Below, piece by piece: positions 19,932-47,255 of a stretch of DNA of 48,888 nt. Under the pieces are notes generated by a model. That model saw nothing but the letters and a program-made list of their open reading frames with translations, was not told the origin of the DNA and made no database searches. Every line of letters starts with the position of its first letter. Position 1 is the stretch's first letter. The DNA comes from an uncultured Candidatus Saccharibacteria bacterium (lineage in GTDB: Bacteria; Patescibacteriota; Minisyncoccia; Phycocordibacterales; SBAW01): assembly GCA_964650645.1 (NCBI GenBank), contig CAZYUH010000001.1, forward strand, positions 705,202 through 754,089, read 5' to 3'. The position numbers and the translations under genes are program-made.

Positions 19932-21080
19932 TTAGTGCGCTTTCTCAAGCTCGATGAGCTTTTCCAGGCCTTCGAACAACCGCTTGGTCACTTCGGCTTC
20001 CGTTACGCCGAATCTTGCCAGTGGCGATATATCAGCCGTGCCCGCAGCGTCCATTTGCGAATGCTCCCCTGACAGGCCGCGAGCCTGGAGGCCGAAGCCT
20101 TTAGCCGCAGCCTTCAATCCGCTCTCGTCAGTTCCCTGCTTTGAGAGGCTCGGAAACTGGAGGAGCACCGATTGCCTCTTGCCAGTGCCCATATTGGTCG
20201 GGCAGGTCGTGATGAACCCATACTTCGGATCCGTGGCGAACTCAACGCCCGCCTCCGCCATTGCGGAAAGGAGCGCTGAAAGCGACCGGTCGACAACGCC
20301 AAGATCGCTTCCATGGACGATGCTGATTATCCTGAGATGGTCTTCTTCCCCCACCCACACCATCATCTTCTTGTCCGAGCTCAGCCATATCCCCCTTCCG
20401 TGCGGCCAATCGGAAGCGATGCCGCTGCTTGTCAGGTGGTTATCGCTTGTCATATCGTTGAAGAGGTAGTGGTCCCGCCTCATCTCATCAGCTTGGGCTG
20501 CCGGAATTTCGCACGGGTGTCCGGGAGTCAGGCTATAGTATTTCCCAGCGAAAGGAAGCTTGTTGAAAACCGATCCGACCATGAACTCCTCGAACTTCAC
20601 CCGCTCCGATTTGTCCATTGAGCTCGGGAGGTTCCAGCCCGAGACGTTCCTCGCAACGCGGGCCCGCATTGAGACATCGGACAGACTCGGATCAACCAGC
20701 CGGAGGTCGTATACGCCTACCGGGATATTCCAGTCGTGGGCCTGTGCAACATCTCCCGCGATGTTGTGGTATTCGCGGATGATCGGCTCCAAATACCTTC
20801 CCAGCTCGGAGTAATCTGAAGGGCGGGTTGCGTAGACGCCGACACTGGCATCTTCATTTGAAAGACCGCCGACCATTACGTCGAGCAGCCGCTGCTGCTG
20901 GTCCGGAGACAGGTTTTCCGCCCATTCCCTTACCCGGGGAGTGAAGTGCTTGTTCCCGAGCGAAACTTTTACGCCCCTGAGAGCGCGGAAGCGGTCGGAG
21001 ACTTTTCCCCAATCAACATTCCCTTCCTTTACATACGGAGCGCGGGCCTCATCCTTGAAGATGACTTGGTTGTTGTGCAT
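19932..21080 (-). CDS. ATP:guanido phosphotransferase (two-domain phosphagen kinase)
   Basis: N-domain GLSNEDASVGVYA...PIIREYH; RARVARN; DHYLF; WPHGRG; WVGEEDHLRIIS; TCPTNMGTG.R; RGLSGEH; DISPLARFGVTEAE. SD-like AAAGGGA upstream. Confidence 0.93.
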   Translation of the reverse strand: MHNNQVIFKDEARAPYVKEGNVDWGKVSDRFRALRGVKVSLGNKHFTPRVREWAENLSPDQQQRLLDVMVGGLSNEDASVGVYATRPSDYSELGRYLEPIIREYHNIAGDVAQAHDWNIPVGVYDLRLVDPSLSDVSMRARVARNVSGWNLPSSMDKSERVKFEEFMVGSVFNKLPFAGKYYSLTPGHPCEIPAAQADEMRRDHYLFNDMTSDNHLTSSGIASDWPHGRGIWLSSDKKMMVWVGEEDHLRIISIVHGSDLGVVDRSLSALLSAMAEAGVEFATDPKYGFITTCPTNMGTGKRQSVLLQFPSLSKQGTDESGLKAAAKGFGLQARGLSGEHSQMDAAGTADISPLARFGVTEAEVTKRLFEGLEKLIELEKAH

Positions 21081-21257
21081 TTTGATCCCTTTATCAATAG
21101 GCTAAGGATCGTTTGTACGGATCCGAAGTAAAAATACTACATTTGCTTGAAAAGTCTATTTCATGCCTTATTGCAGCCCCGCCAGGACGCCGCAGACCGG
21201 TAAAGGCGGCGCACAAGCACGAGCTGCTTGGATGAGTGGGCGACATTGAAACACATC

Positions 21258-21584
21258 TTATTTCTTAGCTTTCTTTTTCTTCGCCGGCAAAGACTTGGCA
21301 ATATCAAGCAAGATGTTTGGCAGGCTCTCCATCCTGGACAGCTGGCCTTCTTCCACCAAGTAATGGGGTTTTGCGCCGGGATACGGCTCGTCTTTTTCGC
21401 ATACGGATTCAAGATCCCGGCTTGCAGGCAAAACTTTTACGTACAACTGGTCGTCGCAAATAAGGGCCACTGCTTTGCCGTCTGCGTACAGCGCATACTC
21501 ACCGAATATTGCGAGAACAGAAAAATTCTTGGGATGCCGGAGCTTTTCCAAGATAAATTCGACTGCTTCTTTCCGGGTAGACAG
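21258..21584 (-). CDS. TfoX/Sxy N-terminal domain protein (start uncertain)
   Basis: FGEYALYADGKAVALICDDQLYVK and PYPGAKPHY. Family-like start (L)STRKE begins at CTG 21584; the track uses TTG 21608. Confidence 0.75.
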   Translation of the reverse strand: MSTRKEAVEFILEKLRHPKNFSVLAIFGEYALYADGKAVALICDDQLYVKVLPASRDLESVCEKDEPYPGAKPHYLVEEGQLSRMESLPNILLDIAKSLPAKKKKAKK

Positions 21585-21626
21585 AGACGATTCAAGAAAT
21601 TTCAGCAAATGACGCTAGGCCGCAAT

Positions 21627-21773
21627 GACGATATTGCAGTCAAGGAAATAGATATACGAAATTACGCTAAGTATTTATTACGAGAAGGAACAGATCTAGA
21701 AAAGCGAGAATTGCTTGGATGTTTGAAAGGTAATATTTTGTTATCTGAAAAAAAGATTCTATTAACAAAATAA
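21627..21773 (+). pseudogene. Probable 3' remnant of a large serine recombinase
   Basis: DDIAVKEIDIRNYAKYLLREGTDLEKRELLGCLKGNILLSEKKILLTK resembles, from recall, C-termini of Patescibacteria recombinase-family proteins. No own start; GC drops here; terminator follows. Confidence 0.5.
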
Positions 21774-21800
21774 AAACCACTCGACTGAGTGGTTTTTATT
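21769..21800. terminator. Bidirectional intrinsic terminator
   Basis: AATAAAAACCACTC-GACT-GAGTGGTTTTTATT, perfect 14-bp stem. Confidence 0.8.
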
Positions 21801-21836
21801 TCATATTCCTATGTTACTTATATCGCGAACTTAATG

Positions 21837-23363
21837 TTAGTAACTCATAAACTCCGTCACTTCACCATCATTACCGATTGCATAGATGATCCATTTCTCT
21901 GTCTTTGGTCCTGGCATTCCTGGAGAACCTGAAGGCATTCCAGGCAAGGCGATACCTTTGATGGCTGGTTTTTCTGCGAGCAACTTTTCTATTACCTCCA
22001 GTGGTATGTGCCCCTCAACTACATAGCCTCCAACTATAGAAGTGTGGCAGCTCTGTAGATTAGTTGGAACGCCGTACTGATCTTTGATAGCAGTAAGGTC
22101 TTCAACGTCTATAGCCTTTACTTTTACATCTTCACGTTCAAGGTACTCCACATAAACGTGACAGCAACCACACGTTTTTGTTTTATATACCGTCATCTCC
22201 TCACCCATAAGGGCAGTCTTCTCTTCGGAAACGCTTTGACCTTTCCAGATGCTTATACCATTCGGCTTACTGCCTACCGATATTTGAGTTATTTCCTTAC
22301 CTGTTTTTGTATCGACTACAGAGACAGTATTTCCTTCGAGGTTTGTGACATATGCCTTGCTATTATCGTCATTAATAACGACTCCGTGAGGGGCTTTCCC
22401 AACAGCAATGCTTTCAGTTATTTCTTTCGTTTTAAGATCCAGTTTGTACAGCTTGTTGTTTGCAGGTCGGTTCTGTAGAACCCCTTGATCTGCAATATAG
22501 ACGTAACGAGAATCTGAAGTCGGATAGAGTTGCACTGGTCCCTCTGAACCCTCTGGCAATGCTACATACGATACTGATTCGAGAGCAGTATCGTACAGAG
22601 CAACGCTGCGAGTCTCATACACAGACGCAGCTACATATTTACCATCAGGAGTAACCGCTGTCTGGACAACCGAACCGTTGAGAATTTTTACTTCTGTCGT
22701 TCCACTTGCGAGATCGACGACACCAAGACCCTTCCCGTCCATAAAGGCAACATAGGCAGTTTTTCCATCAGGAGAGAGTCGCATACCATGGGGACCGCTT
22801 CCTTCGGGTAGACTAATCTCTGTTTGTAGGAAATTGCTCGTATCTACTTTGTAGAGCTTATTTGTCTCCTGCGCCGCGATAAGTGCTATAGATCCGTCTG
22901 GGGTAAACACGACATGCGCCAGATGCTGACCACTTCCAAGCGGTATTCGTTTGACTATGGCGTCCTCTTGAGGGTCAATGACGATAACCTGATCCCCAGT
23001 GTCCATCTTCATTTCCTCATGTCCCTCATCGGCATATGCGGTAGGAATGAAAAGTGAAGTATGTACGTCATGCTCCTCCATTCCAGCATTAGCTGTTACC
23101 CAAACACTTTTTCCGTCGGGGGACGCCTGGACATTGTGCGGAAGATATTTCGTCTCAGTTTCTTGCTCAGTAAGATCAATGACTTTGATTGATTTGTTTG
23201 TGGCAGGGTCAATCACATTCACAGTGCCTTCTTCTTCGACTGCCACATAGATTTTCTCTGTAAGTGCATTTCCTGTTGAGGAAATGGGGTTATTCTTTGC
23301 AAGCAACGTAATGCCTACAAGTGCAAGGATTACAATCCCGCCTAATAGATATGCTTTCTTCAT
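21837..23363 (-). CDS. YVTN/YncE beta-propeller fused to a C-terminal DUF411 (CopG-like) domain
   Basis: Blades PHNVQASPDG, AHVVFTPDG, PHGMRLSPDG, APHGVVIN; C-terminal TCGCC, SCHTSIVGGYVVEGH, GIALPGMPSGSPGM. Confidence 0.85.
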   Translation of the reverse strand: MKKAYLLGGIVILALVGITLLAKNNPISSTGNALTEKIYVAVEEEGTVNVIDPATNKSIKVIDLTEQETETKYLPHNVQASPDGKSVWVTANAGMEEHDVHTSLFIPTAYADEGHEEMKMDTGDQVIVIDPQEDAIVKRIPLGSGQHLAHVVFTPDGSIALIAAQETNKLYKVDTSNFLQTEISLPEGSGPHGMRLSPDGKTAYVAFMDGKGLGVVDLASGTTEVKILNGSVVQTAVTPDGKYVAASVYETRSVALYDTALESVSYVALPEGSEGPVQLYPTSDSRYVYIADQGVLQNRPANNKLYKLDLKTKEITESIAVGKAPHGVVINDDNSKAYVTNLEGNTVSVVDTKTGKEITQISVGSKPNGISIWKGQSVSEEKTALMGEEMTVYKTKTCGCCHVYVEYLEREDVKVKAIDVEDLTAIKDQYGVPTNLQSCHTSIVGGYVVEGHIPLEVIEKLLAEKPAIKGIALPGMPSGSPGMPGPKTEKWIIYAIGNDGEVTEFMSY

Positions 23364-23367
23364 AGGC

Positions 23368-23763
23368 TTAATTGTTGAACCACGTTTGTCGCCATTCTCT
23401 CATCATTTCAATTTCACTTGTCTGTGCGTTAATAATGTCATTTCCAAGTTTTACGAGTTCAGGGCGCTTAGTCTTTTGAAGAAGCATCTCTGCCATATCT
23501 ACAGCTCCTTCGTGGTGAACAATCATCTCGTCAATAAATGCCTTCTCAAATTCTTCTCCTGATTTACCTTCTAAACCTGCTGTCATATTAGTCATTGTGT
23601 TTCCCATTTCGTGTGAGTTACCCATCATATGACTGCTTGTGTCGGTTATACCTGACATCATTGGGTAATCCATTTTTCCTGTTCCTAAGAAATATCCAAG
23701 AACAAGTCCCAGAATGAGGGTAATGATGCCGATAATAAGTAGATGTATATTTTTTGTTTCCAT
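23368..23763 (-). CDS. DUF305 ferritin-like (CopM-like) protein
   Basis: Met/His-rich linker; FIDEMIVHHEGAVDMA...IINAQTSEIEMM. Confidence 0.88.
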   Translation of the reverse strand: METKNIHLLIIGIITLILGLVLGYFLGTGKMDYPMMSGITDTSSHMMGNSHEMGNTMTNMTAGLEGKSGEEFEKAFIDEMIVHHEGAVDMAEMLLQKTKRPELVKLGNDIINAQTSEIEMMREWRQTWFNN

Positions 23764-23803
23764 AATTTTGTTTAATAGTTGCTAATAAAAGAAGTAGGAA
23801 AAA

Positions 23804-24211
23804 TTACGGGGCTTTGGGATGCAAAATACCTTGAGAGAATAGCTCTGTATATAAATCGGGAATATGGAACGTGAACCTGCGAGGTAATTCTTGAGAGTTG
23901 GATATTTTGGGCGGATCCAGTATGTCCTTTTTTATATACGTGTGGAGGGCAAGTCCAAGAGCTATAAGTAAAAGCAAGTAGGAAGCGATGAGTGTTAGAG
24001 GAACACTGAACATGCTTTGCCATACAGAAAGGTACTCAAACGGGTTCATTGCACAAATGACATGCTCTCCAAGCGTTATGGTGCATCCAGCTTGGTGTTC
24101 ACCGTGCGACATTTGAACCGCCGACAAAATGCCAAACCCACCTACCCATACAAATGCCACTAAGAGTATGCCGAGGAGGAGATATTTTGCTTTGTTAGTA
24201 AAAAATGACAT
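23804..24211 (-). CDS. Hypothetical membrane protein in the copper operon
   Basis: Two TM segments, MSHGEHQAGC...HVIC motif, C-terminal ELFSQGILHPK; 2-nt gap to copB. Confidence 0.7.
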   Translation of the reverse strand: MSFFTNKAKYLLLGILLVAFVWVGGFGILSAVQMSHGEHQAGCTITLGEHVICAMNPFEYLSVWQSMFSVPLTLIASYLLLLIALGLALHTYIKKDILDPPKISNSQELPRRFTFHIPDLYTELFSQGILHPKAP

Positions 24212-24213
24212 AC

Positions 24214-26259
24214 TTACATTCTATAATTTTTCAGGAGGGTTGCGTTAATCGCCACGACCACCGTACTTACTGACATCAGTACGGCTCCTACGGCAGGAGA
24301 TAAAACAATTCCGACACCAGCGAGTACTCCCGCTGCCAGTGGCAGGGCAAGAATGTTATAACCGCTTGCCCACCAGAGATTTTGGATCATCTTTCGATAG
24401 GTAGCTTTGGCAAGAGAAAGAATTACAACCACATCTCTTGGGTCGCTTTTTACCAAGACCACATCAGCGCTTTCTATAGCCACATCGGTTCCAGCGCCGA
24501 TAGCGATGCCAACATTGGCCTGTGCAAGAGCTGGTGCGTCATTGACCCCGTCTCCGACCATCGCCACCTTATACCCTTGAGCTTGGATTTCTTTTATTTT
24601 CTCTGTCTTCTCGTGTGGCAATACCTCTGCGTAATAGGTTTTGATACCGAGCTCCTTTGAAACACGTTCTGCAACACGCTTTGCGTCCCCGGTAAGCATA
24701 ATGGGTTCAATTCCCATTGCTTGAAGTTTTTGGACCACCTCCTTTGCTTCATCGCGAACCAAATCATCAAGAGCAATAGCACCTATAGGTAATTCGTTAA
24801 CCAAAACGAACACGACAGTCCGTCCCTCATCAATCAAACGTTCAACATTTTTGTTGTTTACCGTTATGCTCTTTCCATTCAAATACCCTGGACTTACGAC
24901 TTTGATTTGTTTTCCTTCTACAGTGCCCATTGCACCTTTACCTGGTATTGAGGAGAAGTTATTTACAGCAAGCTTTTTGCTTACCCGTTCTGCTATAGCT
25001 TTGGCTATCGGATGTTCGGAGTGTGCCTCTATTGCGGCAGCATAGGCAAGGATTCGATCCTCCTGTTCATTTCCCAAGGGCACAACTTCGGTTATACCGA
25101 ACTTTCCTTTAGTAAGAGTGCCTGTCTTATCAAAGACAACAGCTGTTATATTCCGTGCTTCTTCAAAAGCGGTTCTGTTGCGTATAAGCAAGCCTTTGCG
25201 AGCAGAAAGAGCTGTTGAAACCGAAACCACAAGCGGTATAGCAAGACCGAGTGCGTGAGGACAAGCTATGACAATAACAGCAATGGTTCGCTGAAGGGCA
25301 TACGCGAGATTTTCTGACGTAAAAAATGTCCAACCAAAGAATGTAAGTATCCCTGCGCCTATCGCAACAAACGTTAGCCACATCGCTGCACGATCAGCGA
25401 GTTTCTGGGTCTTTGACTTTTCTGCCTGTGCTGATGACACAAGCTCTATAATTTGCGAAAGATATGTGTCTTTTCCTACTTTCTGTATCTCTACTACGAT
25501 TGAGCCATCACTGTTTACAGAGCCTCCAATAACGGATTGTCCAGCAAACTTTTCTATGAGCTTGGTTTCTCCTGTAAGCATTGCTTCATTTACAGAAGTT
25601 CTTCCTTCAACAACAATGCCGTCAACTGGAATCTTCTCACCAGGCTTTACAAGAACTCTATCTCCGAGGGACAGATCGGCAACCTGAACATCTTCTGTCT
25701 CTCCGTCTTTTCCTAGCCGATGTGCTGTTGAAGGCATTAGCTTTGCTAGCTCTTCCAAAGCCCGAGATGCACCCATGACCGACCGCATTTCGATCCAGTG
25801 CCCAAGAAGCATAATGTCCACGAGCGTTACCAGCTCCCACAAAAGCTCCTCGCCGGGCAGGCCCGCAAACACAGCAATGCTATATCCATAAGCGGCAGAA
25901 ATAGCCAAGGCGACGAGCGTCATCATCCCCGGCTGTCTTGCTTTTACTTCATCATATAAACCTTTGAGAAAAGGATAGCCCCCATAAAAGAAAATGATTG
26001 AGGCGAGAATAAACCGAACATATACATCTCCTGAAAAGCCGATACCCTCTATACCAAAAAACATCTGGACCATCGGCGAGAGAACAAGTACAGGAATGGA
26101 GAGAATTAGAGAAATCCAAAACTTCTTTCTGAAATCCTCAACCATATGGGCGTGATGACCTTGATGGTTGTCGTGTGAATGTTTCTCTTGGTGGCTACTG
26201 TCCGTATCAGAGCAAGAGTGATCAGCAGGAGAATGTTTGTGATGAGAAGTATCGTGCAT
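24214..26259 (-). CDS. copB: Copper-translocating P1B-type ATPase, His-rich N-terminus (CopB-like)
   Basis: His-rich N-tail, CPH, DKTGTLT, TGE-type actuator motif (MLTGE), GDGVNDAPAL, YNILA, MSVSTVVVAINA. Confidence 0.92.
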   Translation of the reverse strand: MHDTSHHKHSPADHSCSDTDSSHQEKHSHDNHQGHHAHMVEDFRKKFWISLILSIPVLVLSPMVQMFFGIEGIGFSGDVYVRFILASIIFFYGGYPFLKGLYDEVKARQPGMMTLVALAISAAYGYSIAVFAGLPGEELLWELVTLVDIMLLGHWIEMRSVMGASRALEELAKLMPSTAHRLGKDGETEDVQVADLSLGDRVLVKPGEKIPVDGIVVEGRTSVNEAMLTGETKLIEKFAGQSVIGGSVNSDGSIVVEIQKVGKDTYLSQIIELVSSAQAEKSKTQKLADRAAMWLTFVAIGAGILTFFGWTFFTSENLAYALQRTIAVIVIACPHALGLAIPLVVSVSTALSARKGLLIRNRTAFEEARNITAVVFDKTGTLTKGKFGITEVVPLGNEQEDRILAYAAAIEAHSEHPIAKAIAERVSKKLAVNNFSSIPGKGAMGTVEGKQIKVVSPGYLNGKSITVNNKNVERLIDEGRTVVFVLVNELPIGAIALDDLVRDEAKEVVQKLQAMGIEPIMLTGDAKRVAERVSKELGIKTYYAEVLPHEKTEKIKEIQAQGYKVAMVGDGVNDAPALAQANVGIAIGAGTDVAIESADVVLVKSDPRDVVVILSLAKATYRKMIQNLWWASGYNILALPLAAGVLAGVGIVLSPAVGAVLMSVSTVVVAINATLLKNYRM

Positions 26260-26263
26260 ATAG

Positions 26264-26533
26264 TTATTTGCTTTGGGCTAACTTATATACCTTAAGAATT
26301 TCATTGATTGCTTTCCCTTCTTCTTTGCCTCGCATTTGATGCACAACATGCGTAGATAAGTGATGTTCCAGCATCACATTTTCTACGCTTCCCAATGCCT
26401 TTTTGATGGCATTGGATTGAGTGATGATATCTACACAATATTTCTCGCTTTCCACCATTTGCTGTAAACCACGCACCTGACCCTCGATGCGGCGCAGACG
26501 ATTTTGCAACTGCTTTTTTATGTCTTGCTTCAT
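26264..26533 (-). CDS. csoR: CsoR/RcnR family metal-sensing repressor
   Basis: RLRRIEGQVRGLQQMV, YCVDIITQ, MLEHHLSTHV; a CsoR-type operator sits directly upstream. Confidence 0.88.
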   Translation of the reverse strand: MKQDIKKQLQNRLRRIEGQVRGLQQMVESEKYCVDIITQSNAIKKALGSVENVMLEHHLSTHVVHQMRGKEEGKAINEILKVYKLAQSK

Positions 26534-26539
26534 ATCTTA

Positions 26540-26567
26540 AGTATACCCCTGTGGGGTATACGGTCAA
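26540..26567 (-). promoter_or_regulatory. Sigma70-type promoter overlapped by a CsoR-type operator
   Basis: Perfect palindrome GTATACCCC-TGT-GGGGTATAC (26541-26561); minus strand TTGACC-N16-TATACT-N6-ATG. Confidence 0.85.
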
Positions 26568-26728
26568 GCTCAGTTTCGTTAGTTGATACTGTACCTTATT
26601 CATTCTCCTCCACAGGAACGTGTAAAAGCAAAAAGCGCCCAAACCAGGCACTTTTTACCTATAAAAACCTTCCTTAGTTAATATAAGGCTATCGACGCGT
26701 CTCGTGCGCGATAACCTATCACGAGTTG

Positions 26729-26743
26729 GCTGGGAGACATGGA
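26729..26743. repeat. att core, distal copy of the tRNA-Gln 3' end
   Basis: Identical to 31418-31432; on the minus strand it continues ...TCTCCCAG-CCA. Confidence 0.85.
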
Positions 26744-26880
26744 ACCTCACTGCTCGCTTCGCTGCGCTTACGAAACCCTCGGTTTCGTAGACTTCCGACA
26801 CGGGGAACTCCCATTCCCCGACCCCCTCCCGGTTCAAATCCATGCCGCGGGCAACCCCGTTGCCCGCTTCTCCCAGCTTC
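26744..26880 (-). other. tRNA-linked palindromic module with a split antisense copy of the tRNA-Gln 3' end
   Basis: GCTGGGAGA-A-[GCGGGCAAC GGG GTTGCCCGC]-GG-CATGGATTTGAACC, followed by further hairpins (GGGGAA/TTCCCC, TACGAAACC/GGTTTCGTA). Confidence 0.7.
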
Positions 26881-26924
26881 AGCGCTTCGTATTCTAGCTG
26901 GGTGTATGGGACGATGTTGGAACC

Positions 26925-27431
26925 TTACTTTGTGCTTAAGCCCATTACCCGAGAGTAGTATGGCAAAATCTCTTGGGCTAGAGGCGCAAGATTTACTTTA
27001 TCAGCAGATTCAGCAAAAAGTTGGAATATAGGCCACAACTCTTGGGTTAGAGTTTTTACATCCCAAACTTTACTTTTTGGAGTACCGCTTTGTCTTGAAG
27101 TGGTAAGATGACCAACTTCCTTATCAGCCCGGGTCTTTGCCTCTGTCAAAACTTCACTTAATTGCGGCCTTACTTTATCCCAGGAGTCTTCCTTGTTAAA
27201 GAAGTCTTTCGCACATACGTCAGTGTCTCTAGAAGAGGCTGGATATAGGAAAGTAATCAGATTCCGCAAGTGTATTGCGTAAGATTCAACAGGCATATGT
27301 TGCAATCCGTTAGGAACTTTAAGCCCACGAATTATTGCATCAGTACCATTGAGTAACATTTGAACCTCATACCGTACATGTTCAGAAAAGTACTCGACAA
27401 GTTGTTTTTCCGTTAGGTCTTTTGTTTTCAT
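26925..27431 (-). CDS. Hypothetical protein, HEPN-like
   Basis: ESYAIHLRNLITFL and RADKEVGH (R-x6-H); all-helical appearance. Confidence 0.6.
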   Translation of the reverse strand: MKTKDLTEKQLVEYFSEHVRYEVQMLLNGTDAIIRGLKVPNGLQHMPVESYAIHLRNLITFLYPASSRDTDVCAKDFFNKEDSWDKVRPQLSEVLTEAKTRADKEVGHLTTSRQSGTPKSKVWDVKTLTQELWPIFQLFAESADKVNLAPLAQEILPYYSRVMGLSTK

Positions 27432-27781
27432 TGCTGAAGCGTAAAATTAAGACATCCGCAACCAGATTTGCATGGTATTTCCTTATTAAAGACAGGGATA
27501 CTTTGTCCTGGTTCAATCTTAGAAAATCCTTCTTTGTGCATAAACTTGGAGTGACCACACTGGCATTGTTGTTTCAAGGACTCTAAGTATTCATCTTGCA
27601 CAGATACATCTATCTCAACTATCTTTTCATTGTTCTCGCACACTTCGTTTACACATTGAAACTTTCTTTTACCGTCAAACTTTTGAGAAGGCTCTCCTTC
27701 AAGTTTTCGCATAGCAAAAGGGCCAATTTCTCTCATTACCTCATGGCAAACTTCGCAGGGCATTTCTTTCATAAATTTCAA
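27428..27781 (-). CDS. Double zinc-finger-like small protein
   Basis: CEVC...CVNEVC and CQCGH...H...CKSGCGC; ATGA-coupled to the next gene. Confidence 0.7.
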   Translation of the reverse strand: MKFMKEMPCEVCHEVMREIGPFAMRKLEGEPSQKFDGKRKFQCVNEVCENNEKIVEIDVSVQDEYLESLKQQCQCGHSKFMHKEGFSKIEPGQSIPVFNKEIPCKSGCGCLNFTLQQ

Positions 27782-27786
27782 TAACT

Positions 27787-29019
27787 TTAGGTTAACTTTT
27801 CGAATTTACTCGAGAGACTCTTTAGGTTATCTAGCAACTCGTCAAATGTAATAAACTCTATATTCTTGAACGACCTACGCAACAATCTAAAGTCTCTCTT
27901 TTTGTTATCGTTACTCTCCCACTCTTGAGTCTTCCCTATTATTAAAAAGGCTTTTGGCTTGAGAACTGAGAATGGAACCTTAGTTTGCTTTTGTAGGTAC
28001 TTTTCGAATCCCTCAACATTTTTTTCAAGAAAGAGAATGTATTTTTCAATCTGAGAAATTGCCTGCGAAGAGCTTCTTGAAAGGAAATAGTTATCATGAC
28101 TGGTGTCTATCCTTCTCGCAAAAATTTCAGTGAATGGTGTCTTTATTTCAAACACATCCAGGAATCCATATAAATCTATCCAGACAAAATCTGGTTTTTT
28201 AGCACCTTCTTCCGTTTTGGCGAAATTAACATCTGCTTCCCTTATCGACTCAATGTAATTTGAGTTAAAGAAGAAGACTTCCTCATGCAGAAACTTTTGC
28301 CACTGTTTTTCCGAGAAGTTTCTGTTTTTGATATGTCTTTCAAACTTCTTTATCACTTGGTCAAGAGTCTTCTTTCTTCCCTCAATGACAAGGTTCTCCT
28401 GCAAATACTCCAGAACTTGGTCATTTTCTGAGTTTATAGAGATGTATCTTTTAATAAAACCAGCGACAGCCTCATGATCGTCTTTATCAAGAGTGTTTAG
28501 GTTAATCTCAGTTAATTTCTTATTTGCACTTTCGTCACTTGATGCACTCTTGAATTCGTTAGGCAAAAAACGAGCAAGACGCTCTTGCACAACAGAATCT
28601 CTTCCTTTTTTTACCTCAGTTCCAAGGTCTTCAAGTAACTCTCTAAAATCTTTAAAAGAGAGACTGAGCGAAACATACTTAGGCTGATTCTTAAAGTAAG
28701 TCGAGCCATGACCACTCATAAATACACTTAGTCTGGTTTCTTTACCAAACTTATTTTTAAGGAAATCCAAAACGTGACTTCCACCAACTTTATTGACCTG
28801 TCTCTGATTAAAACCTCCTCCTGTCTTGTATAAAAATAGTCCTACCGGCTGCTGAGAAAATCCTTTAAAAGTTATTGTCTTTATACTAAACCTTTTAGCT
28901 ACAGACGGTTTGAAGTAGTAAATGAAGTTATCGTCTTGTTTTTTCCAGCCAGCAAGAATCCTCTTAGCCCTCTTTTTGGCTTTCTTTTTTGAGGACTTCT
29001 TTTTCTTCTTGGCTACCAT
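27787..29019 (-). CDS. sduA: Shedu (SduA, DUF4263) anti-phage nuclease
   Basis: EKQWQKFL, KPDFV, VFEIKTP, SQAISQIEKY, KPKAFLIIG, FRLLRRSFKNIEFITFDELL; TATACT 6 nt upstream. Confidence 0.9.
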   Translation of the reverse strand: MVAKKKKKSSKKKAKKRAKRILAGWKKQDDNFIYYFKPSVAKRFSIKTITFKGFSQQPVGLFLYKTGGGFNQRQVNKVGGSHVLDFLKNKFGKETRLSVFMSGHGSTYFKNQPKYVSLSLSFKDFRELLEDLGTEVKKGRDSVVQERLARFLPNEFKSASSDESANKKLTEINLNTLDKDDHEAVAGFIKRYISINSENDQVLEYLQENLVIEGRKKTLDQVIKKFERHIKNRNFSEKQWQKFLHEEVFFFNSNYIESIREADVNFAKTEEGAKKPDFVWIDLYGFLDVFEIKTPFTEIFARRIDTSHDNYFLSRSSSQAISQIEKYILFLEKNVEGFEKYLQKQTKVPFSVLKPKAFLIIGKTQEWESNDNKKRDFRLLRRSFKNIEFITFDELLDNLKSLSSKFEKLT

Positions 29020-29135
29020 GCGGGTAGTATACTCTTGTTCCTGAAAACTTCATCCGCCGGCGCGGGCGGCCATCCGAGGCGCCCTGCGGAGCTTCGTGCC
29101 GCGCCTAGCGGCATGAAGGGGCGGGGCTGCCCGCG

Positions 29136-29357
29136 CTAGCTAAAGGGTCCTTTGCGGATAAGAGTCTCTGCTTCTTTTTCTGCTCCTGGCTTCCGTGTAT
29201 TTTCTTCTATCTTCTCAAGCAAATTTACTATTCGATTTTGTTTCCAGTACCAAGTAAATATCTCTCGAACTAACAAAAAACCAATGAGCCAAAGAAATAG
29301 AATCGGCCAGTTATCAAAGAAGCTAATGATTTGTCGCGGCAATTCTAGGCTGTCCAT
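29136..29357 (-). CDS. Small single-pass membrane protein
   Basis: TM helix then REIFTWYWKQNRIVNLLEKIEEN. Confidence 0.65.
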   Translation of the reverse strand: MDSLELPRQIISFFDNWPILFLWLIGFLLVREIFTWYWKQNRIVNLLEKIEENTRKPGAEKEAETLIRKGPFS

Positions 29358-29389
29358 ATCTTAAAAAGTTACAGATAAAGCCGTGGACG

Positions 29390-29530
29390 CAAAAAGCCCG
29401 CCACGGGTAGAGACCGAAGTCTCTCGTACCAGTTTCCCGATACGGCAGGTAATGCAACCCCATGACGGGTTCTTTATGCATTACCTGACTTGTCGACCTT
29501 ACCTGGGGTTGCCAGGGTTAGGCCCTTTTT
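29390..29530 (-). promoter_or_regulatory. Putative structured RNA leader / attenuator
   Basis: GAAA-loop hairpin (29425-29444), UUCG hairpin (29409-29424), closing stem CCTGCC/GGCGGG plus T-tract, and an 11-bp stem (29446-29456/29477-29487) that overlaps the closing stem. Promoter TTGAAA-N18-TATAGT at 29547-29576. Confidence 0.5.
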
Positions 29531-29719
29531 ATTCAGTTGTGGCCCCACTATACCATCAGTTTTGCCAACATTTCAAAAAGCGTTTCCGAATACAAAAAGT
29601 GCTTGCCGGGGCGGTTTATGAGCGTAAAATTGTTAGTAAGTTCTGGAATAAAAGTCCCGTAAACACGCCTCCTTCGAGGGCAGAGGCAGAACCCACATTA
29701 AAAGCTCGTCTTTTCTTTT

Positions 29720-29932
29720 GTGGTTTATTCTGCCCCTCTAATACAAGAGACTATTTTCGTCTTTCAAGAAGAAAACGGCATACTTCTCACACCCGAGGAG
29801 GCTGTTATTGTTTTGGATGGCCTTTCTGGGTTGTTTTTGGCATATGCAGACCGAGCTGAGGCGACTCCACCCGCTTTAGCGGTGGAGTCGCACTCTATAG
29901 ACTTGATACTCCACACACTTAATGCTACTTAA
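29720..29932 (+). CDS. Small protein directly upstream of the recombinase
   Basis: GTG start; LIQETIFVFQEENGILLTPEEAVIVLDGLSGLFLAY; TTGCCG-N16-TAAAAT promoter at 29603-29630. Confidence 0.55.
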   Translation: MVYSAPLIQETIFVFQEENGILLTPEEAVIVLDGLSGLFLAYADRAEATPPALAVESHSIDLILHTLNAT

Positions 29933-29969
29933 ATTTATTTACTTTTAATTTCAGTGTATTTTAGAGCTT

Positions 29970-31478
29970 ATGAAATACTTCATTTACTGCCGCAAAAGCA
30001 CTGACACGGAGGACCGGCAGGTATTGTCCCTGGACTCGCAGGAAAACGAGCTTAAACGGCTCGCAGAGGCCCAAGGGCTCAAGGTTGCGGGGGTACTTCG
30101 GGAGTCTATGTCGGCTAAGGCTATAGGCCGTCCTGTCTTTACCCAGCTCCTCAAAGCTCTATCCTCTGGTAAAGCCGATGGAATTCTCTGTTGGAAGCTA
30201 GACCGTCTCGCCCGCAACATGGTGGATGGCGGCCAAGTCATGGATTTGCTCCAAAGGGGTGTAATCAAAGAAATTCGCACTTACGAATCAACCCACCTCT
30301 CCTCCGACAATGTCCTCATGCTCGCCGTCCACTTCGGCATGGCAAATCAGTACATCCGCGACCTGAGCATAAATGTTAAGCGTGGACTTAGAGCAAAACT
30401 AGAGCGTGGCGACTGGCCCAACAAACCCCCTCTTGGATATTTCAACGACAAAAACACAAAGCAAATAGTTATAGACCCCATTTCCAGCAGATATGTCGTG
30501 CGCGCATTTGAACTCTACGCAACAGGGAGCTATGGCATAGAAGACTTGGCAGACAAACTGTACGCCGAAGGACTACGGAGCAACCGAGGAGCAAAGATTC
30601 ACAAGTCCACTCTACACAAAGTTCTTCTTCGCTCGTTCTACACAGGGGTCATGGAGCGCGACAATCGCTTTTACAAAGGCAACCATGCTCCCCTCATTTC
30701 AAAGCAACTTTACGATAAGGCCCAAACCGTACTCTCGGGCAATGCACATCCCAAGCCCCAGCGTTTGTTCTTCCCTCTCAGAGGATTCCTGAAATGCGCT
30801 TCCTGTGGCTGTGCGCTTACTGCCTCTCTCAAGAAAGGCCATCAGTATTACTATTGCACCAATGGCAAGGGTAAATGCGACCAGCACAAGAGCTACCTGC
30901 GCGAGAACACCATAAACGCTATGGTGGCTGATTTGTTCGACTCCCTGCACTTCTCTGAGCGCAAGATTGAACTTATGTATAAAGCCGCTAAGGAAAGGTC
31001 AGAGCAGGAGGGCGGCCAAGAAAGACAGAACCTAAACCGCCTCCAGAACCTCTTAAACGCCCTCTCAGAGAAAGAAAGTCGCCTGTTAGATACTTTCGTA
31101 GCCGGTCAGATTCCTAAAGAGCTTTACGACCGCAAGGCGGGCGAAATACAGCATGAACGTCTAGACCTTACCCGCCAGATTCGGGAGGCTGAAAGTAAGG
31201 GAGATGTTTCTACTTTGGAACCGACTAAGCAAGTCTTTTTACAAGCCAGTAAAGCCAAAAAAGAGTTTTTGGATGGCGATGATACTAAAAAGCGCACTAT
31301 CGTAGAAAATCTACTTTGGAACCTTTCTATCGAAAACAAATCCGTGGCTCAAACACAATATAAAAGCCCATTTCACTTACTAGCAAATATCCCTAAAAAC
31401 GCCTCACTTTCAACAATGCTGGGAGACATGGATTCGAACCATGATTCACGCCTCCAAAGGGCGCTGTCCTACCATTAG
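29970..31478 (+). CDS. Large serine recombinase (resolvase + recombinase + Zn-ribbon + coiled coil)
   Basis: YCRKST (catalytic Ser), WKLDRLARN, PPLGY, CASCG...YYYC...C. The last ~20 codons are antisense to tRNA-Gln. Confidence 0.95.
   Translation: MKYFIYCRKSTDTEDRQVLSLDSQENELKRLAEAQGLKVAGVLRESMSAKAIGRPVFTQLLKALSSGKADGILCWKLDRLARNMVDGGQVMDLLQRGVIKEIRTYESTHLSSDNVLMLAVHFGMANQYIRDLSINVKRGLRAKLERGDWPNKPPLGYFNDKNTKQIVIDPISSRYVVRAFELYATGSYGIEDLADKLYAEGLRSNRGAKIHKSTLHKVLLRSFYTGVMERDNRFYKGNHAPLISKQLYDKAQTVLSGNAHPKPQRLFFPLRGFLKCASCGCALTASLKKGHQYYYCTNGKGKCDQHKSYLRENTINAMVADLFDSLHFSERKIELMYKAAKERSEQEGGQERQNLNRLQNLLNALSEKESRLLDTFVAGQIPKELYDRKAGEIQHERLDLTRQIREAESKGDVSTLEPTKQVFLQASKAKKEFLDGDDTKKRTIVENLLWNLSIENKSVAQTQYKSPFHLLANIPKNASLSTMLGDMDSNHDSRLQRALSYH
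31418..31432. repeat. att core, tRNA-proximal copy
   Basis: GCTGGGAGACATGGA inside the tRNA-Gln 3' half and the recombinase 3' end. Confidence 0.85.
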
Positions 31479-31489
31479 ACGATCTCCCA
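31419..31489 (-). tRNA. tRNA-Gln (TTG)
   Basis: TGGGAGA/TCTCCCA acceptor, GCGCC-CT-TTG-GA-GGCGT anticodon arm, GGTTCGAATCC T-arm; CCA not encoded. Confidence 0.95.
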
Positions 31490-31537
31490 ATACGGTGAGG
31501 ATAGCAGGAAAACGGCCTTTTTGCATGGCAAGAGAAA

Positions 31538-32125: not shown

Positions 32126-33181
32126 TTACGCCAGCGCCCGGTACAAGGCAAGCTCCAGCGGGAGCTGCGGCAGGGGCGCCTTGCCCGTTTCCAGAAGCGC
32201 GGTGATGAGCTCCGCGAGGAGCGCGGCGTTTATCGCGGCGCCGTCCTTGCCCGCGAGCTCCCTGAGCAGTTTCACGTCGTCCTCGCCGAACTGCCCCGCA
32301 AGCTCGCCCTCCGTCTTGGGCGCGAATCGCAGAAGAAGGACTGCGCGCGCCTTCGCCAACGCGAGCAAAATGAACGTCTTAGCCTCCGAGCCGCTCTCAA
32401 GCGCGGCATGGAATTTTTCCACGGCCGCGCCGATGTCCTTGGCGGCCACAGCCTTTAAAAACCCGTTGACCGTCTGCGCCGCAGGCGCGCCCACCACGCG
32501 GGCGACCTCCTCTTCGGTCAGCTTCGCGTCTTCGCTTATAGTCAAGACCTTCTGCAGGATGCCCAGCGTGTCGCGGAACGAGCCATCACCCATGAGCGCC
32601 ACCAGTTCGGCCCCCGCCGGCGCCATGCCCGCGCCCTCCTGCTTCGCAACGTCCATGACGAGCGACTTGAGCGTCTCGTGCGAGGGCTTCTTGAAATTGA
32701 ACACCTGGCAGCGCGACACTATCGTCTCGGGCACGCGGTCGAGCTCGGTGGTGGCCAGCACGAACACCGCGTGCGCCGGCGGCTCTTCCAAGGTCTTCAG
32801 GAGCGCGCCCCACGCGTCTTTCGTAAGCGCATGCGCCTCGTCTATTATGTAGAACTTGTACTTTGAAGCGAACGGCAGGGTCGCCACTCCCTCGCGCAAT
32901 TCGCGTATCTCGTCGATGCCGCGGTTGCTCGCGGCGTCCATCTCGTAAATGTCCTGCCCGCTGGTGCCCAGCGCGTTCGCCAATATGCGGGCCATGGAGG
33001 TCTTGCCCGTGCCGCGCCCGCCCGCGAACAGGTAGGCGTGCGCGATTTTCCCGCCCGCCACGGCGGCCTCAAGCACGCGCACCACGTGCTCCTGGCCGCG
33101 CACCTCGCCGAATGCCGCAGGACGGTAAGCGCGGTACAGGGCCGTATGGGCGCGCGCGGGAGCGTCTGACTTGTTCGCCAT
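32126..33181 (-). CDS. dnaX: DNA polymerase III subunit gamma/tau (short form, 351 aa)
   Basis: ALYRAYRP, HAYLFAGGRGTGKTS, EMDAASNRGIDEIR, IIDEAHAL, LLKTLEEPP, SRCQ; TATACT 6 nt upstream of MANK. Confidence 0.93.
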   Translation of the reverse strand: MANKSDAPARAHTALYRAYRPAAFGEVRGQEHVVRVLEAAVAGGKIAHAYLFAGGRGTGKTSMARILANALGTSGQDIYEMDAASNRGIDEIRELREGVATLPFASKYKFYIIDEAHALTKDAWGALLKTLEEPPAHAVFVLATTELDRVPETIVSRCQVFNFKKPSHETLKSLVMDVAKQEGAGMAPAGAELVALMGDGSFRDTLGILQKVLTISEDAKLTEEEVARVVGAPAAQTVNGFLKAVAAKDIGAAVEKFHAALESGSEAKTFILLALAKARAVLLLRFAPKTEGELAGQFGEDDVKLLRELAGKDGAAINAALLAELITALLETGKAPLPQLPLELALYRALA

Positions 33182-33190
33182 ACGGACAGT

Positions 33191-33400
33191 ATACCCGAGG
33201 ATAGTGAGCAAAATAAACTTGTTTATTTTAGCGAACGACGCAGGATATATGAGCTCCTGACTCATATACCCGAGGATAGCGAGTAAAAACACACGCTTGC
33301 GTGTGTTTTTCGCGAGCGACGCAGGATATATGTGCTTTTGGCTCATATACCCGAGGATAGTGAGCAAAGAAAAAGCCGGCAGATTCAAGTATCTGCCGGC
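33191..33400. repeat. Tandem 57-bp repeat (2 full copies + 1 partial) separated by unique perfect hairpins
   Basis: 33231-33287 vs 33312-33368 match at 50/57; 22-bp partial copy at 33191; hairpins at 33210-33229, 33285-33310 and 33375-33400. Confidence 0.9.
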
Positions 33401-33416
33401 CAAAAGACGCTTTTCA

Positions 33417-33689
33417 TTAGAACCCCCGTTCGCGCTCCATCTCCATAAGCAGTTCTGCCGCTTCACGGAGCGGATTGTGCTCGGGGCGCTCCAAGCCCTC
33501 CATCTGCCACATGAGCCGCTTCTTATCGAAAAGCTCGATGTAGCGCTCCAAAGTAACGCCGTCCGAAACATAACGGCCGTTCTCGTGGAAGAAATTGACC
33601 GACACTTCGACGGTGCTGTCCATGCGCCGGCGCGGCTCCCAGCCGAACGCCGCGAAAGCGGCCATCCTCCTATTAGGCATATCGTCCAT
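33417..33689 (-). CDS. Hypothetical protein
   Basis: Start MDDMPNRR with GGAGG SD; 90 aa; no family recognised. Confidence 0.5.
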   Translation of the reverse strand: MDDMPNRRMAAFAAFGWEPRRRMDSTVEVSVNFFHENGRYVSDGVTLERYIELFDKKRLMWQMEGLERPEHNPLREAAELLMEMERERGF

Positions 33690-33799
33690 GGAATCCTCCC
33701 TCCATTGAAGCCCGGGCACATGCCAGGGCGCGCCTCTGCGGGCACTATAGGACAAAACCCCCGGGAAGGAAAGCGGGACCGCAGGGAGGTGCGGCCTTG

Positions 33800-44229: not shown

Positions 44230-44466
44230 CAGAGGGTAGCGATGTGCCGGAGAAGGCCATGCCGGTGCATGGCCTGCGGGAGGCTTGAAGGGCGGAGCGA
44301 TGTTTTGCACTTGCAAAACCGCGAGCCGGGGATGAAAGGCAAACTGCTTTGCCTTTCATCCGGTGCCGAAGGCAAGCGCCGATGCCGCCTTGCGGCAGGC
44401 GCTAGGTGGACGCGGCGCTTGGCTGGCGAGCAGGGCCGACTTGTGGTCAAGTCCCACCTCCGGCAC
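44211..44466 (+). mobile_element. 236-bp non-coding mini-element duplicating the tRNA-Leu 3' end
   Basis: TCAAGTCCCACCTCCGGCAC at 44211-44230 and 44447-44466 flanks a hairpin-rich insert. Confidence 0.7.
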
Positions 44467-46972: not shown

Positions 46973-46984
46973 TATTCTGTCATC

Positions 46985-47055
46985 GGGCGATTAGTTTAAT
47001 GGTAGAACAGCGGTCTCCAAAACCGCTAGCGAGGGTTCGATTCCTTCATCGCCCG
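46985..47055 (+). tRNA. tRNA-Trp (CCA)
   Basis: GGGCGAT/ATCGCCC acceptor, GCGGT-CT-CCA-AA-ACCGC, GGTTCGATTCC; CCA not encoded. Confidence 0.95.
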
Positions 47056-47255
47056 CATAAGACGCAACAACCTCCCCTGCGGGAGGTTTTGCGCTTATGC
47101 GGGAGGCAGAGCGATGTTTTGCACTTGCAAAACCGCGAGCCGGGATCGCGAAAGCTTTTTGCGACGGCAAAAAGCTATTCGTGATCGCAATAGGCATCCC
47201 GCGTATGCGAATTTCCAGCAGGAAATTATGCGTGGCCGATTCCGCCCCTCATGTC
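47052..47255 (+). repeat. tRNA-linked palindromic module sharing a 36-bp core with the tRNA-Leu element
   Basis: GAGCGATGTTTTGCACTTGCAAAACCGCGAGCCGGG is identical at 47109-47144 and 44295-44330; nested hairpins. Confidence 0.8.

Follow-up and report, generated by a model that had tools for sequence, protein, structure and literature searches.

A narrowly distributed non-coding module with tandem-duplication polymorphism ahead of dnaX in an Adlerbacteria-like bacterium

In a 48,888-nt stretch of DNA from contig CAZYUH010000001.1 (hereafter the window), the start of dnaX, which encodes a short gamma/tau clamp-loader subunit, is preceded on the minus strand by an array of hairpin-bearing repeats, two of which supply an ATG in frame with the gene. 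The locus raises the question of whether these repeats provide alternative promoters and N-terminal isoforms of DnaX, as the original prediction from the sequence had proposed, or form part of a control region from which no additional protein is made. Comparison of the orthologous loci points to the latter, and the array appears to be the duplicated form of a new, narrowly distributed and conserved non-coding module that lies upstream of dnaX in a subclade of the Adlerbacteria and that is polymorphic through tandem duplication. To our knowledge, almost nothing is known about the control of transcription in the Patescibacteria, and a non-coding module of ~80 nt, conserved above the level of synonymous sites and associated with an essential gene of replication, offers a testable candidate regulatory element.

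Among species-representative genomes, the nearest relatives of the DnaX protein belong to Candidatus Adlerbacteria and other metagenome-assembled genomes of the Paceibacterota, at no more than 81% identity, and the host is best described from its sequence as an uncultivated Adlerbacteria-like bacterium of the Patescibacteria (candidate phyla radiation, CPR). DNA of the window was detected in bioreactor, wastewater, aquatic, and soil metagenomes.

Anatomy of the array and the start of dnaX

Read along the minus strand, the stop codon of an open reading frame (ORF) of 91 aa is followed by a G+C hairpin, a box, unit A, a second box, unit B, a third box, and the dnaX ATG. A repeat finder recovers this region as a 28-nt repeat in three copies (at 33190, 33265, and 33346; spacing of 75 and 81 nt) and a 62-nt repeat in two copies (33226-33287 and 33307-33368; 87% identical), accompanied by perfect inverted repeats of 9 bp (33210-33218/33221-33229), 12 bp (33285-33296/33299-33310), and 10 bp (33375-33384/33391-33400). 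Across the 48.9-kb window, the 14-mer ATACCCGAGGATAG is found exactly three times and the 16-mer CGACGCAGGATATATG exactly twice, all within the array, and each unit also holds an 11-bp imperfect palindrome of its own, GGGTATATGAG / CTCATATATCC.

Outward from the gene, the proximal 20-nt box (copy C, GCTCACTATCCTCGGGTATA; 33190-33209, minus strand) includes a TATCCT (33203-33198) and merges into a candidate -10 box, TATACT (33193-33188, minus strand), continuing as TATACT-GTCCGT-ATG into the dnaX start at 33181. Unit B consists of hairpin 2 (AAAATAAAC aa GTTTATTTT; 33210-33229), which is weak (-2 kcal/mol), identical in sequence to that of the sister species L161 and similar to those of L164, L166, and L081; a linker (TGCGTCGTTCGCT; 33230-33242, minus strand) that the alignment identifies as a portion of the conserved CCTGCGnCGyTCGCT; and hairpin 1 (GGGTATATGAG tcaggag CTCATATATCC; 33243-33271), which holds an ATG at 33265 and a TATCCT at 33247-33242. 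Beyond the middle box (copy B, ACTCGCTATCCTCGGGTATA; 33265-33284, minus strand), with TATATG at its junction with hairpin 1, unit A repeats this order with a terminator-like hairpin 2 of 12 bp (AAAAACACACGC aa GCGTGTGTTTTT; 33285-33310; -12.9 kcal/mol), a linker likewise placed by alignment (TGCGTCGCTCGCG; 33311-33323, minus strand), and a hairpin 1 with one A.A mismatch (GGGTATATGAG ccaaaag CACATATATCC; 33324-33352) that holds an ATG at 33346. The distal box (copy A, GCTCACTATCCTCGGGTATA; 33346-33365, minus strand), delimited by the repeat finder and by reading of the sequence, closes the array. At both of the upstream junctions between a box and hairpin 1, TATATG stands in place of TATACT and creates an ATG.

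The upstream ORF (33417-33692, minus strand; stop codon 33419-33417), which has a GGAGG Shine-Dalgarno sequence and no Pfam match, ends in an intrinsic terminator (33366-33400, minus strand), a 10-bp G+C stem (33375-33400) followed by TTTTTCTTT, lying outside the repeat. A terminator scan flags this hairpin and the 12-bp hairpin of unit A, both of which fit an intrinsic terminator; hairpin 2 of unit B and most of the orthologous copies of hairpin 2 (-1.5 to -5.4 kcal/mol) do not. The repeats, hairpins, and coordinates first read from the sequence are borne out, with the correction that the 10-bp hairpin, which had been taken for a spacer of the array, is the terminator of the upstream ORF. The likeness to a CRISPR layout falls away, as there are only two to three repeats, the supposed spacers are self-complementary, and one of them belongs to the upstream gene; no cas domains were found among the 15 large ORFs scanned, including the flanks of dnaX, a scan that left out most ORFs of the window. 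The 6-nt loop of the upstream terminator (33385-33390) is inverted between strains, reading on the dnaX strand ACTTGA in the window and TCAAGT in the same-species contig L172 (571-576), which reads as the signature of a hairpin loop flip.

The gene itself (32126-33181, minus strand; 351 aa; Pfam DNA_pol3_delta2, AAA, and DNA_pol3_gamma3) starts at the matching MAKK/MANK codon in ~30 orthologous loci. In nearly all of these loci the start is preceded by TATACT-N6/7-ATG (a variant hexamer occurs in three), with the TATACT immediately following either the terminator of the gene upstream or the 3' end of dus, and in the window no fewer than eight other long ORFs have the same arrangement ahead of them. 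TATACT-N6-ATG at 33193-33179 has the form of a leaderless promoter of the sigma-70 type, with a TAnnnT hexamer, a distance of 6-7 nt, a start codon, and a conserved position. According to this comparative evidence, the true start of dnaX would be the ATG at 33181, giving a protein of 351 aa. The view that TATCCT matches the local leaderless grammar does not hold at dnaX, where the -10 box that fits the grammar is the TATACT at 33193-33188; the accompanying view that the repeated box belongs to the dnaX promoter is supported. TATCCT could plausibly act as a weak -10 box, given that CTATCCTC stands 7 nt ahead of the mature tRNA-Gln 5' end as the sole such box there. Contigs assembled from RNA runs have flat depth, and one of them covers the whole region. 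A literature search on leaderless transcription in the CPR and on repeats at dnaX promoters turned up nothing of direct relevance.

In other bacteria, dnaX loci yield tau and gamma isoforms through programmed frameshifting (the Rfam DnaX element), and in many of them a signal recognition particle (SRP) RNA gene precedes dnaX. This dnaX differs in having neither: a search of 33100-33500 against Rfam 15 at E<=10 returned only chance-level matches (E 3.6-6.2), with no SRP RNA and no dnaX frameshift element, and at the gathering score no family falls in the region, the only matches of the whole window being a LOOT RNA and tRNAs.

The annotation of dnaX varies by strain and by gene caller. Public calls (P0001, P0126-P0133) are 406 or 381 aa long in NCBI, Logan, and ENA and 351 aa long in JGI, with the long calls beginning at ATGs borne by the repeats (in the window, 32126-33346). 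An exact look-up of the 351-, 379-, and 406-aa products found none on record, and the 406-aa form is present as a near-identical cluster representative. As the 90%-identity protein cluster includes calls of 406, 381, and 351 aa, gene callers evidently extend the dnaX ORF into the repeats, and the 406- and 381-aa calls are probably mis-annotations, the comparative evidence favouring 351 aa. In genomes that have leaderless genes, in-frame ATGs made by repeats can lead gene callers astray. Upstream of dnaX in three loci of one sister species (L161, 1297-1461; L162, 697-861; L163, 413-577), a 54-aa gene has been called across an array of 1.5 units, which is probably a spurious call induced by the repeats.

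Conservation, copy number, and origin of the module

The unit of the array recurs in relatives as a module of ~80 nt composed of hairpin 1, the linker CCTGCGnCGyTCGCT, an A/T-tract hairpin (hairpin 2), and the box GCTCRCTATCCTCGGG. Six species, including that of the window, were seen to carry it. Four sister species have a single unit (L081, with DnaX 80% identical to that of the window; L166, 84%; L167, 86%; L164, 87%), and a fifth has 1.5 units (L161-163, 89%), its distal unit having lost the left arm and its box reading TTTCCT. In all of the species that carry it, the module is positioned immediately upstream of dnaX and nowhere else. The genes upstream of the module differ between species, the neighbouring 91-aa ORF being replaced in L081 and L166, and an equivalent G+C-rich terminator stands ahead of the module in L081, L161, L164, L166, and L167. 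The module is absent from L165, L168, L170, L171, L001, and all of the more distant loci read.

Seven instances from the six species could be aligned, in which CTATCCTCGGGTATA is invariant and the linker nearly so. Hairpin 1 comprises 10-12 bp with a conserved outer stem and loops that vary at 5-7 nt, and hairpin 2 retains an A-tract and a T-tract around a variable core. The consensus fold contains a pair in hairpin 1 (4-29) that is GU, AU, or GC, three covarying pairs in hairpin 2, and two compensatory pairs of hairpin 1 that come from L164 alone (TGAG/CTCA to CGGG/CCCG). Identity of the module is 78-88% over the full set of 15 species pairs, compared with 48-67% at the third codon positions of the adjacent dnaX, which argues for purifying selection; the first 60 coding nucleotides beside the module are only ~58% identical between the window and L081. 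The module is probably a functional cis element, as judged from these alignments.

Strains of the window species differ in copy number and carry three alleles: units A and B, unit A only (-75 nt), and unit B only (-81 nt). The full form is found in runs X1-X7, X9, X10, and X15. Runs X8, X14, X16, and X19 lack the 75-nt segment 33190-33264 and have unit A only, with a contig joint of 33189->33265, and the JGI contig L172, compared with the window, lacks the 81-nt segment 33285-33365 and has unit B only. Copy-number variation between strains had been put forward as something to look for, and these alleles provide it. The joint is probably genuine and not an assembly collapse, because only 20 nt are shared there, fewer than the 31-letter words indexing these assemblies (an assembly word length of 31 being assumed from that of the index). 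The units are arranged head to tail, their number differs between close genomes, and the breakpoints fall inside the repeat, as in a tandem duplication or variable-number tandem repeat (VNTR). Almost all of the single-nucleotide polymorphisms (SNPs) between strains listed inside the array are in the distal unit (33284, 33333, 33337, and 33353), which, together with the decayed distal unit of L161, suggests that only the dnaX-proximal copy may be under constraint. The copy-number alleles could serve to mark strains of this organism in bioreactor, wastewater, and soil metagenomes.

The module is restricted to one locus. Searches of the window with 14- and 16-mers gave no copies outside of the array; in each of four assemblies (57-240x) there was one contig matching 33170-33420 at >=80%; and the covariance model R1, built from both hairpins and the linker, gave no further match in the window (filters off) or in 596 kb of relatives (99 loci).

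As to where the module came from, relatives without it have the T-tract of a terminator and then the promoter (L170, CTTTTGGATGGGCGAGCGGGTATACTGG; L001/L014, TTTTAGGTATACTGG), and the species that carry it have the left arm of hairpin 1 at that position (L164, CTTTTGCTTGGCTGAGCGGATATACGG; L081, TTTTTAGGTATATGAG), with a new box and its TATACT ~77 nt downstream of the arm. Compared by eye, the left arm resembles the ancestral promoter (L164 CTTTTGCTTGGCTGAGCGGATATAC and L170 CTTTTGGATGGGCGAGCGGGTATAC; L081 TTTTTAGGTATATG and L001/L014 TTTTAGGTATACTG). The left arm of hairpin 1 looks like a former -10 region of dnaX and the right arm like its inverted copy. This is akin to the quasipalindromes left by template switching, a likeness drawn from the reading of the sequence that extends to the paired changes in L164 and the terminator loop inverted between strains; template switching would account for the origin of the module and not for its conservation.

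Possible roles of the module

The module can best be explained as a control region for the transcription of dnaX, a lineage-specific element of ~80 nt set between the terminator of the upstream gene and a leaderless start. Hairpin 1 would have been assembled from the ancestral -10 region and its inverted copy, and the conserved box GCTCRCTATCCTCGGG would lead into the working -10, TATACT, followed by N6 and the ATG. An ancestral single-copy module would have been duplicated in tandem in the lineage that comprises L161 and its sister, the window species, with recombination between the 20-nt boxes still adding and removing units to give the A+B, A only, and B only alleles. Only the last box has kept TATACT, and the TATATG junctions create ATGs by happenstance, in frame since the length of either unit is divisible by three. 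The module would act in cis, either as a structural or binding site or by shielding the promoter against read-through; the extra copies would be redundant products of unequal recombination; and DnaX would be made only from the ATG at 33181. For the joint statement that a cis module acts on leaderless dnaX transcription, that its extra copies are redundant, and that translation begins at 33181, a probability of about 0.6 seems appropriate, with the functional part set lower.

Several known arrangements share features with such a control region. In compact terminator-promoter junctions, as found in the relatives without the module, a G+C hairpin and T-tract are followed by TATACT 3-30 nt on, and the module has a similar order, with hairpin 2 and its T-tract 16 nt ahead of TATACT; it departs from them in that hairpin 2 is mostly too weak to terminate. 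Unlike plain terminators and promoter spacers, which are not conserved in sequence, hairpin 1, the linker, and the 16-nt spacer of the module are conserved. The array also shares with VNTR-type promoter polymorphism the direct repeats of 75-81 nt beside a promoter, the gain and loss of units by recombination, and several alleles in natural populations, but the unit at dnaX is itself conserved, structured, and single-copy in sister species.

A number of observations weigh against this explanation. Folding energies show no clear strand preference, leaving action at the RNA level and at the DNA level indistinguishable, and hairpin 2 is in several species too weak for a good terminator (-1.5 to -5 kcal/mol). 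The compensatory changes come from a single species (L164) and could stem from template switching within the palindrome. The search for other copies hinges on the sensitivity of the aligner and covers this genome only through contigs. The distribution of the module is patchy in the DnaX tree, itself a rough neighbour-joining tree. Lastly, 55 codons open and in frame in all three alleles are somewhat unlikely by chance, at a rough estimate of a few percent.

Some way behind the control region in probability is the possibility that the module is expressed as RNA, either as a structured leader or an attenuator belonging to a longer dnaX transcript that begins at a TAnCCT box in hairpin 1 or as one or two small RNAs. 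The layout of a hairpin, a conserved linker, and a hairpin with a U-tract would suit such an RNA, both strands fold well (z-scores of -3.1 to -5.8), hairpin 1 has compensatory and G.U-type variation, every instance of the module retains a TA(T/A/C)CCT hexamer that fits TAnnnT, and conservation exceeds the synonymous-site level. What lowers its standing is that no Rfam family matches, even at E<=10; that in the single-copy species inspection by eye of both strands upstream of hairpin 1 revealed no TAnnnT box that is conserved (an antisense TATTTT, also scored by eye, occurs in only five of the eight module instances); that several species have a hairpin 2 too weak for termination; and that the folding energy favours neither strand consistently, the sense strand forming the more stable fold in L161 and the window and the antisense strand doing so in L164, L167, L166, and L081. 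The strand could not be chosen from G.U pairs and folding energy, as the species disagree. A micro-ORF of 12 codons (MSLGAHI.C..R) was rejected as the conserved feature: it is confined to L167, L166, and L081, being removed by a loop shorter by 1 nt in L161 and the window and lacking its ATG in L164.

The isoform proposal has the upstream boxes act as leaderless promoters (TATCCT-N7-AUG), with read-through producing DnaX with 28 or 55 additional residues and the number of isoforms varying with copy number. The sites are present as described: the minus-strand ATGs at 33346 and 33265, each 7 nt after a TATCCT, are set 165 and 84 nt ahead of the dnaX start codon in a frame that runs into the gene with no stops, and the other two frames contain stops. 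The position of CTATCCTC before tRNA-Gln, the very weak hairpin 2 of unit B (-2 kcal/mol), past which read-through is plausible, the open and in-frame state of all three alleles, and the 406- and 381-aa gene calls would all agree with it. DnaX from the ATG at 33181 begins MANKSDAPAR, and the extension, if translated, would include tryptic peptides, for example from MSQELIYPASFAK.

In the five other module-bearing species, however, neither the frame nor the start codon is conserved. The ATG of the hairpin lies at -86 from the dnaX ATG in L167 and L081 and at -85 in L166, in each case out of frame and followed by a TAA after 12 codons; in L161, which has a box mutated to TTTCCT, it lies at -90, in frame and followed by a TAG after 16 codons; and in L164 the codon is ACG. 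It had been stated in advance that other copies without frame preservation would count against the isoforms, and this is what the five species show, so that the parallel drawn with in-frame Rickettsia palindromic elements (RPE) does not carry over. The nucleotides are conserved and the frame is not, and the conserved feature is therefore not coding. Hairpin 1 has no box ahead of it where the module is single-copy, no N-terminal extension of DnaX was found in any of the ~30 orthologous loci compared, and a good terminator ends unit A. The open frame of the window results from a loop that is 1 nt shorter and from units whose lengths are divisible by three, and the three alleles share the same units and do not count as independent evidence. 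Extended isoforms made from these boxes are, on balance, improbable. About as doubtful, and if anything slightly less probable, is the composite in which an undescribed cis-regulatory module would set clamp-loader expression and the duplicated boxes would at the same time be live leaderless promoters, giving two to three DnaX isoforms that vary by strain.

A functionless tandem duplication, with the similarity between species due to local recombination or low divergence instead of selection, is similarly hard to sustain. Units are gained and lost freely between strains, distal units decay, and several relatives do without the module, all as expected of such a duplication, but the module exceeds the third codon positions in identity (78-88% against 48-67%) in all 15 species pairs, and the coding sequence directly beside it falls to ~58% between the window and L081.

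Least probable is a mobile palindromic element, resembling a miniature inverted-repeat transposable element (MITE), a repetitive extragenic palindrome (REP), or an RPE, that was inserted in the dnaX promoter and then multiplied; a palindromic mobile repeat had been the original suggestion. The module does resemble an insertion of ~77 nt after GGTATA, with GGTATA again at its far end, its distribution among relatives is patchy, and it contains palindromes, but it occupies a single locus in four deep assemblies, the window, and 596 kb of relatives, keeps a fixed place relative to dnaX although the upstream neighbours differ, and has neither terminal inverted repeats that could be seen by eye at the ends of the putative insert nor a transposase gene nearby among the ORFs scanned for domains. 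The many copies and the pairing of terminal inverted repeats with a target-site duplication that characterise MITE and REP families are not found here. RPEs are dispersed multi-copy families that are inserted within coding regions and translated. The dnaX array has in common with them a palindromic sequence, beside an essential gene, of a length that keeps the frame open, in this species only; it differs in being at one locus, neither dispersed nor inside a coding region with the frame kept everywhere, and in lying upstream of a conserved start codon, with stops or no ATG in the relatives.

Other features of the window

The five TATCC motifs of the array prompted a search for an oriC-like cluster of DnaA boxes, which was rejected: 33100-33500 holds no TTATCCACA-like box with <=1 mismatch, the whole window holds seven such boxes compared with 4.8 expected, and the cumulative GC skew falls steadily across the window with no switch.

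Positions 21000-31490 form an island of low GC (0.36-0.47 compared with ~0.64 elsewhere) that ends at tRNA-Gln (31418-31489, minus strand). Its genes include a large serine recombinase (29970-31478, plus strand), whose ORF overlaps the tRNA-Gln gene on the opposite strand, a LOOT RNA (29409-29524, minus strand), a Shedu SduA_C defence protein (27787-29019, minus strand), a P-type ATPase (24214-26259, minus strand), and a DUF411/beta-propeller protein (21837-23363, minus strand), and the island looks like an element integrated at tRNA-Gln. At its edge lies an ATP:guanido phosphotransferase of the phosphagen or protein-arginine kinase type (19932-21080, minus strand), with both Pfam domains, in a host group known for reduced metabolism.

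An exact repeat of 33 nt, GAGCGATGTTTTGCACTTGCAAAACCGCGAGCC, is found at 44295-44327 and 47109-47141, ~50-65 nt downstream of tRNA-Leu and tRNA-Trp, each copy being followed by a different hairpin; no such repeat is expected by chance. The kinship that had been suspected between this tRNA-linked core and the dnaX array dissolves on comparison, since only the short flanks GCTCGCG/TCGCT are common to both, the order of A- and T-tracts is opposite, and R1 scores the copies at chance level (12.1 and 9.3 bits; E 0.19-1). The 33-nt repeat is treated as an element separate from the dnaX module.

Candidate -10 boxes also stand close to tRNA genes of the window. At tRNA-Gln only 7 nt separate TATCCT from the mature 5' end (31489-31503, minus strand), at tRNA-Trp only 6 nt separate TATTCT from it (46973-46985, plus strand), and the box of tRNA-Leu is 34 nt upstream. 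Judged by this spacing, transcription of tRNA-Gln and tRNA-Trp may begin at position +1 of the tRNA or directly beside it.

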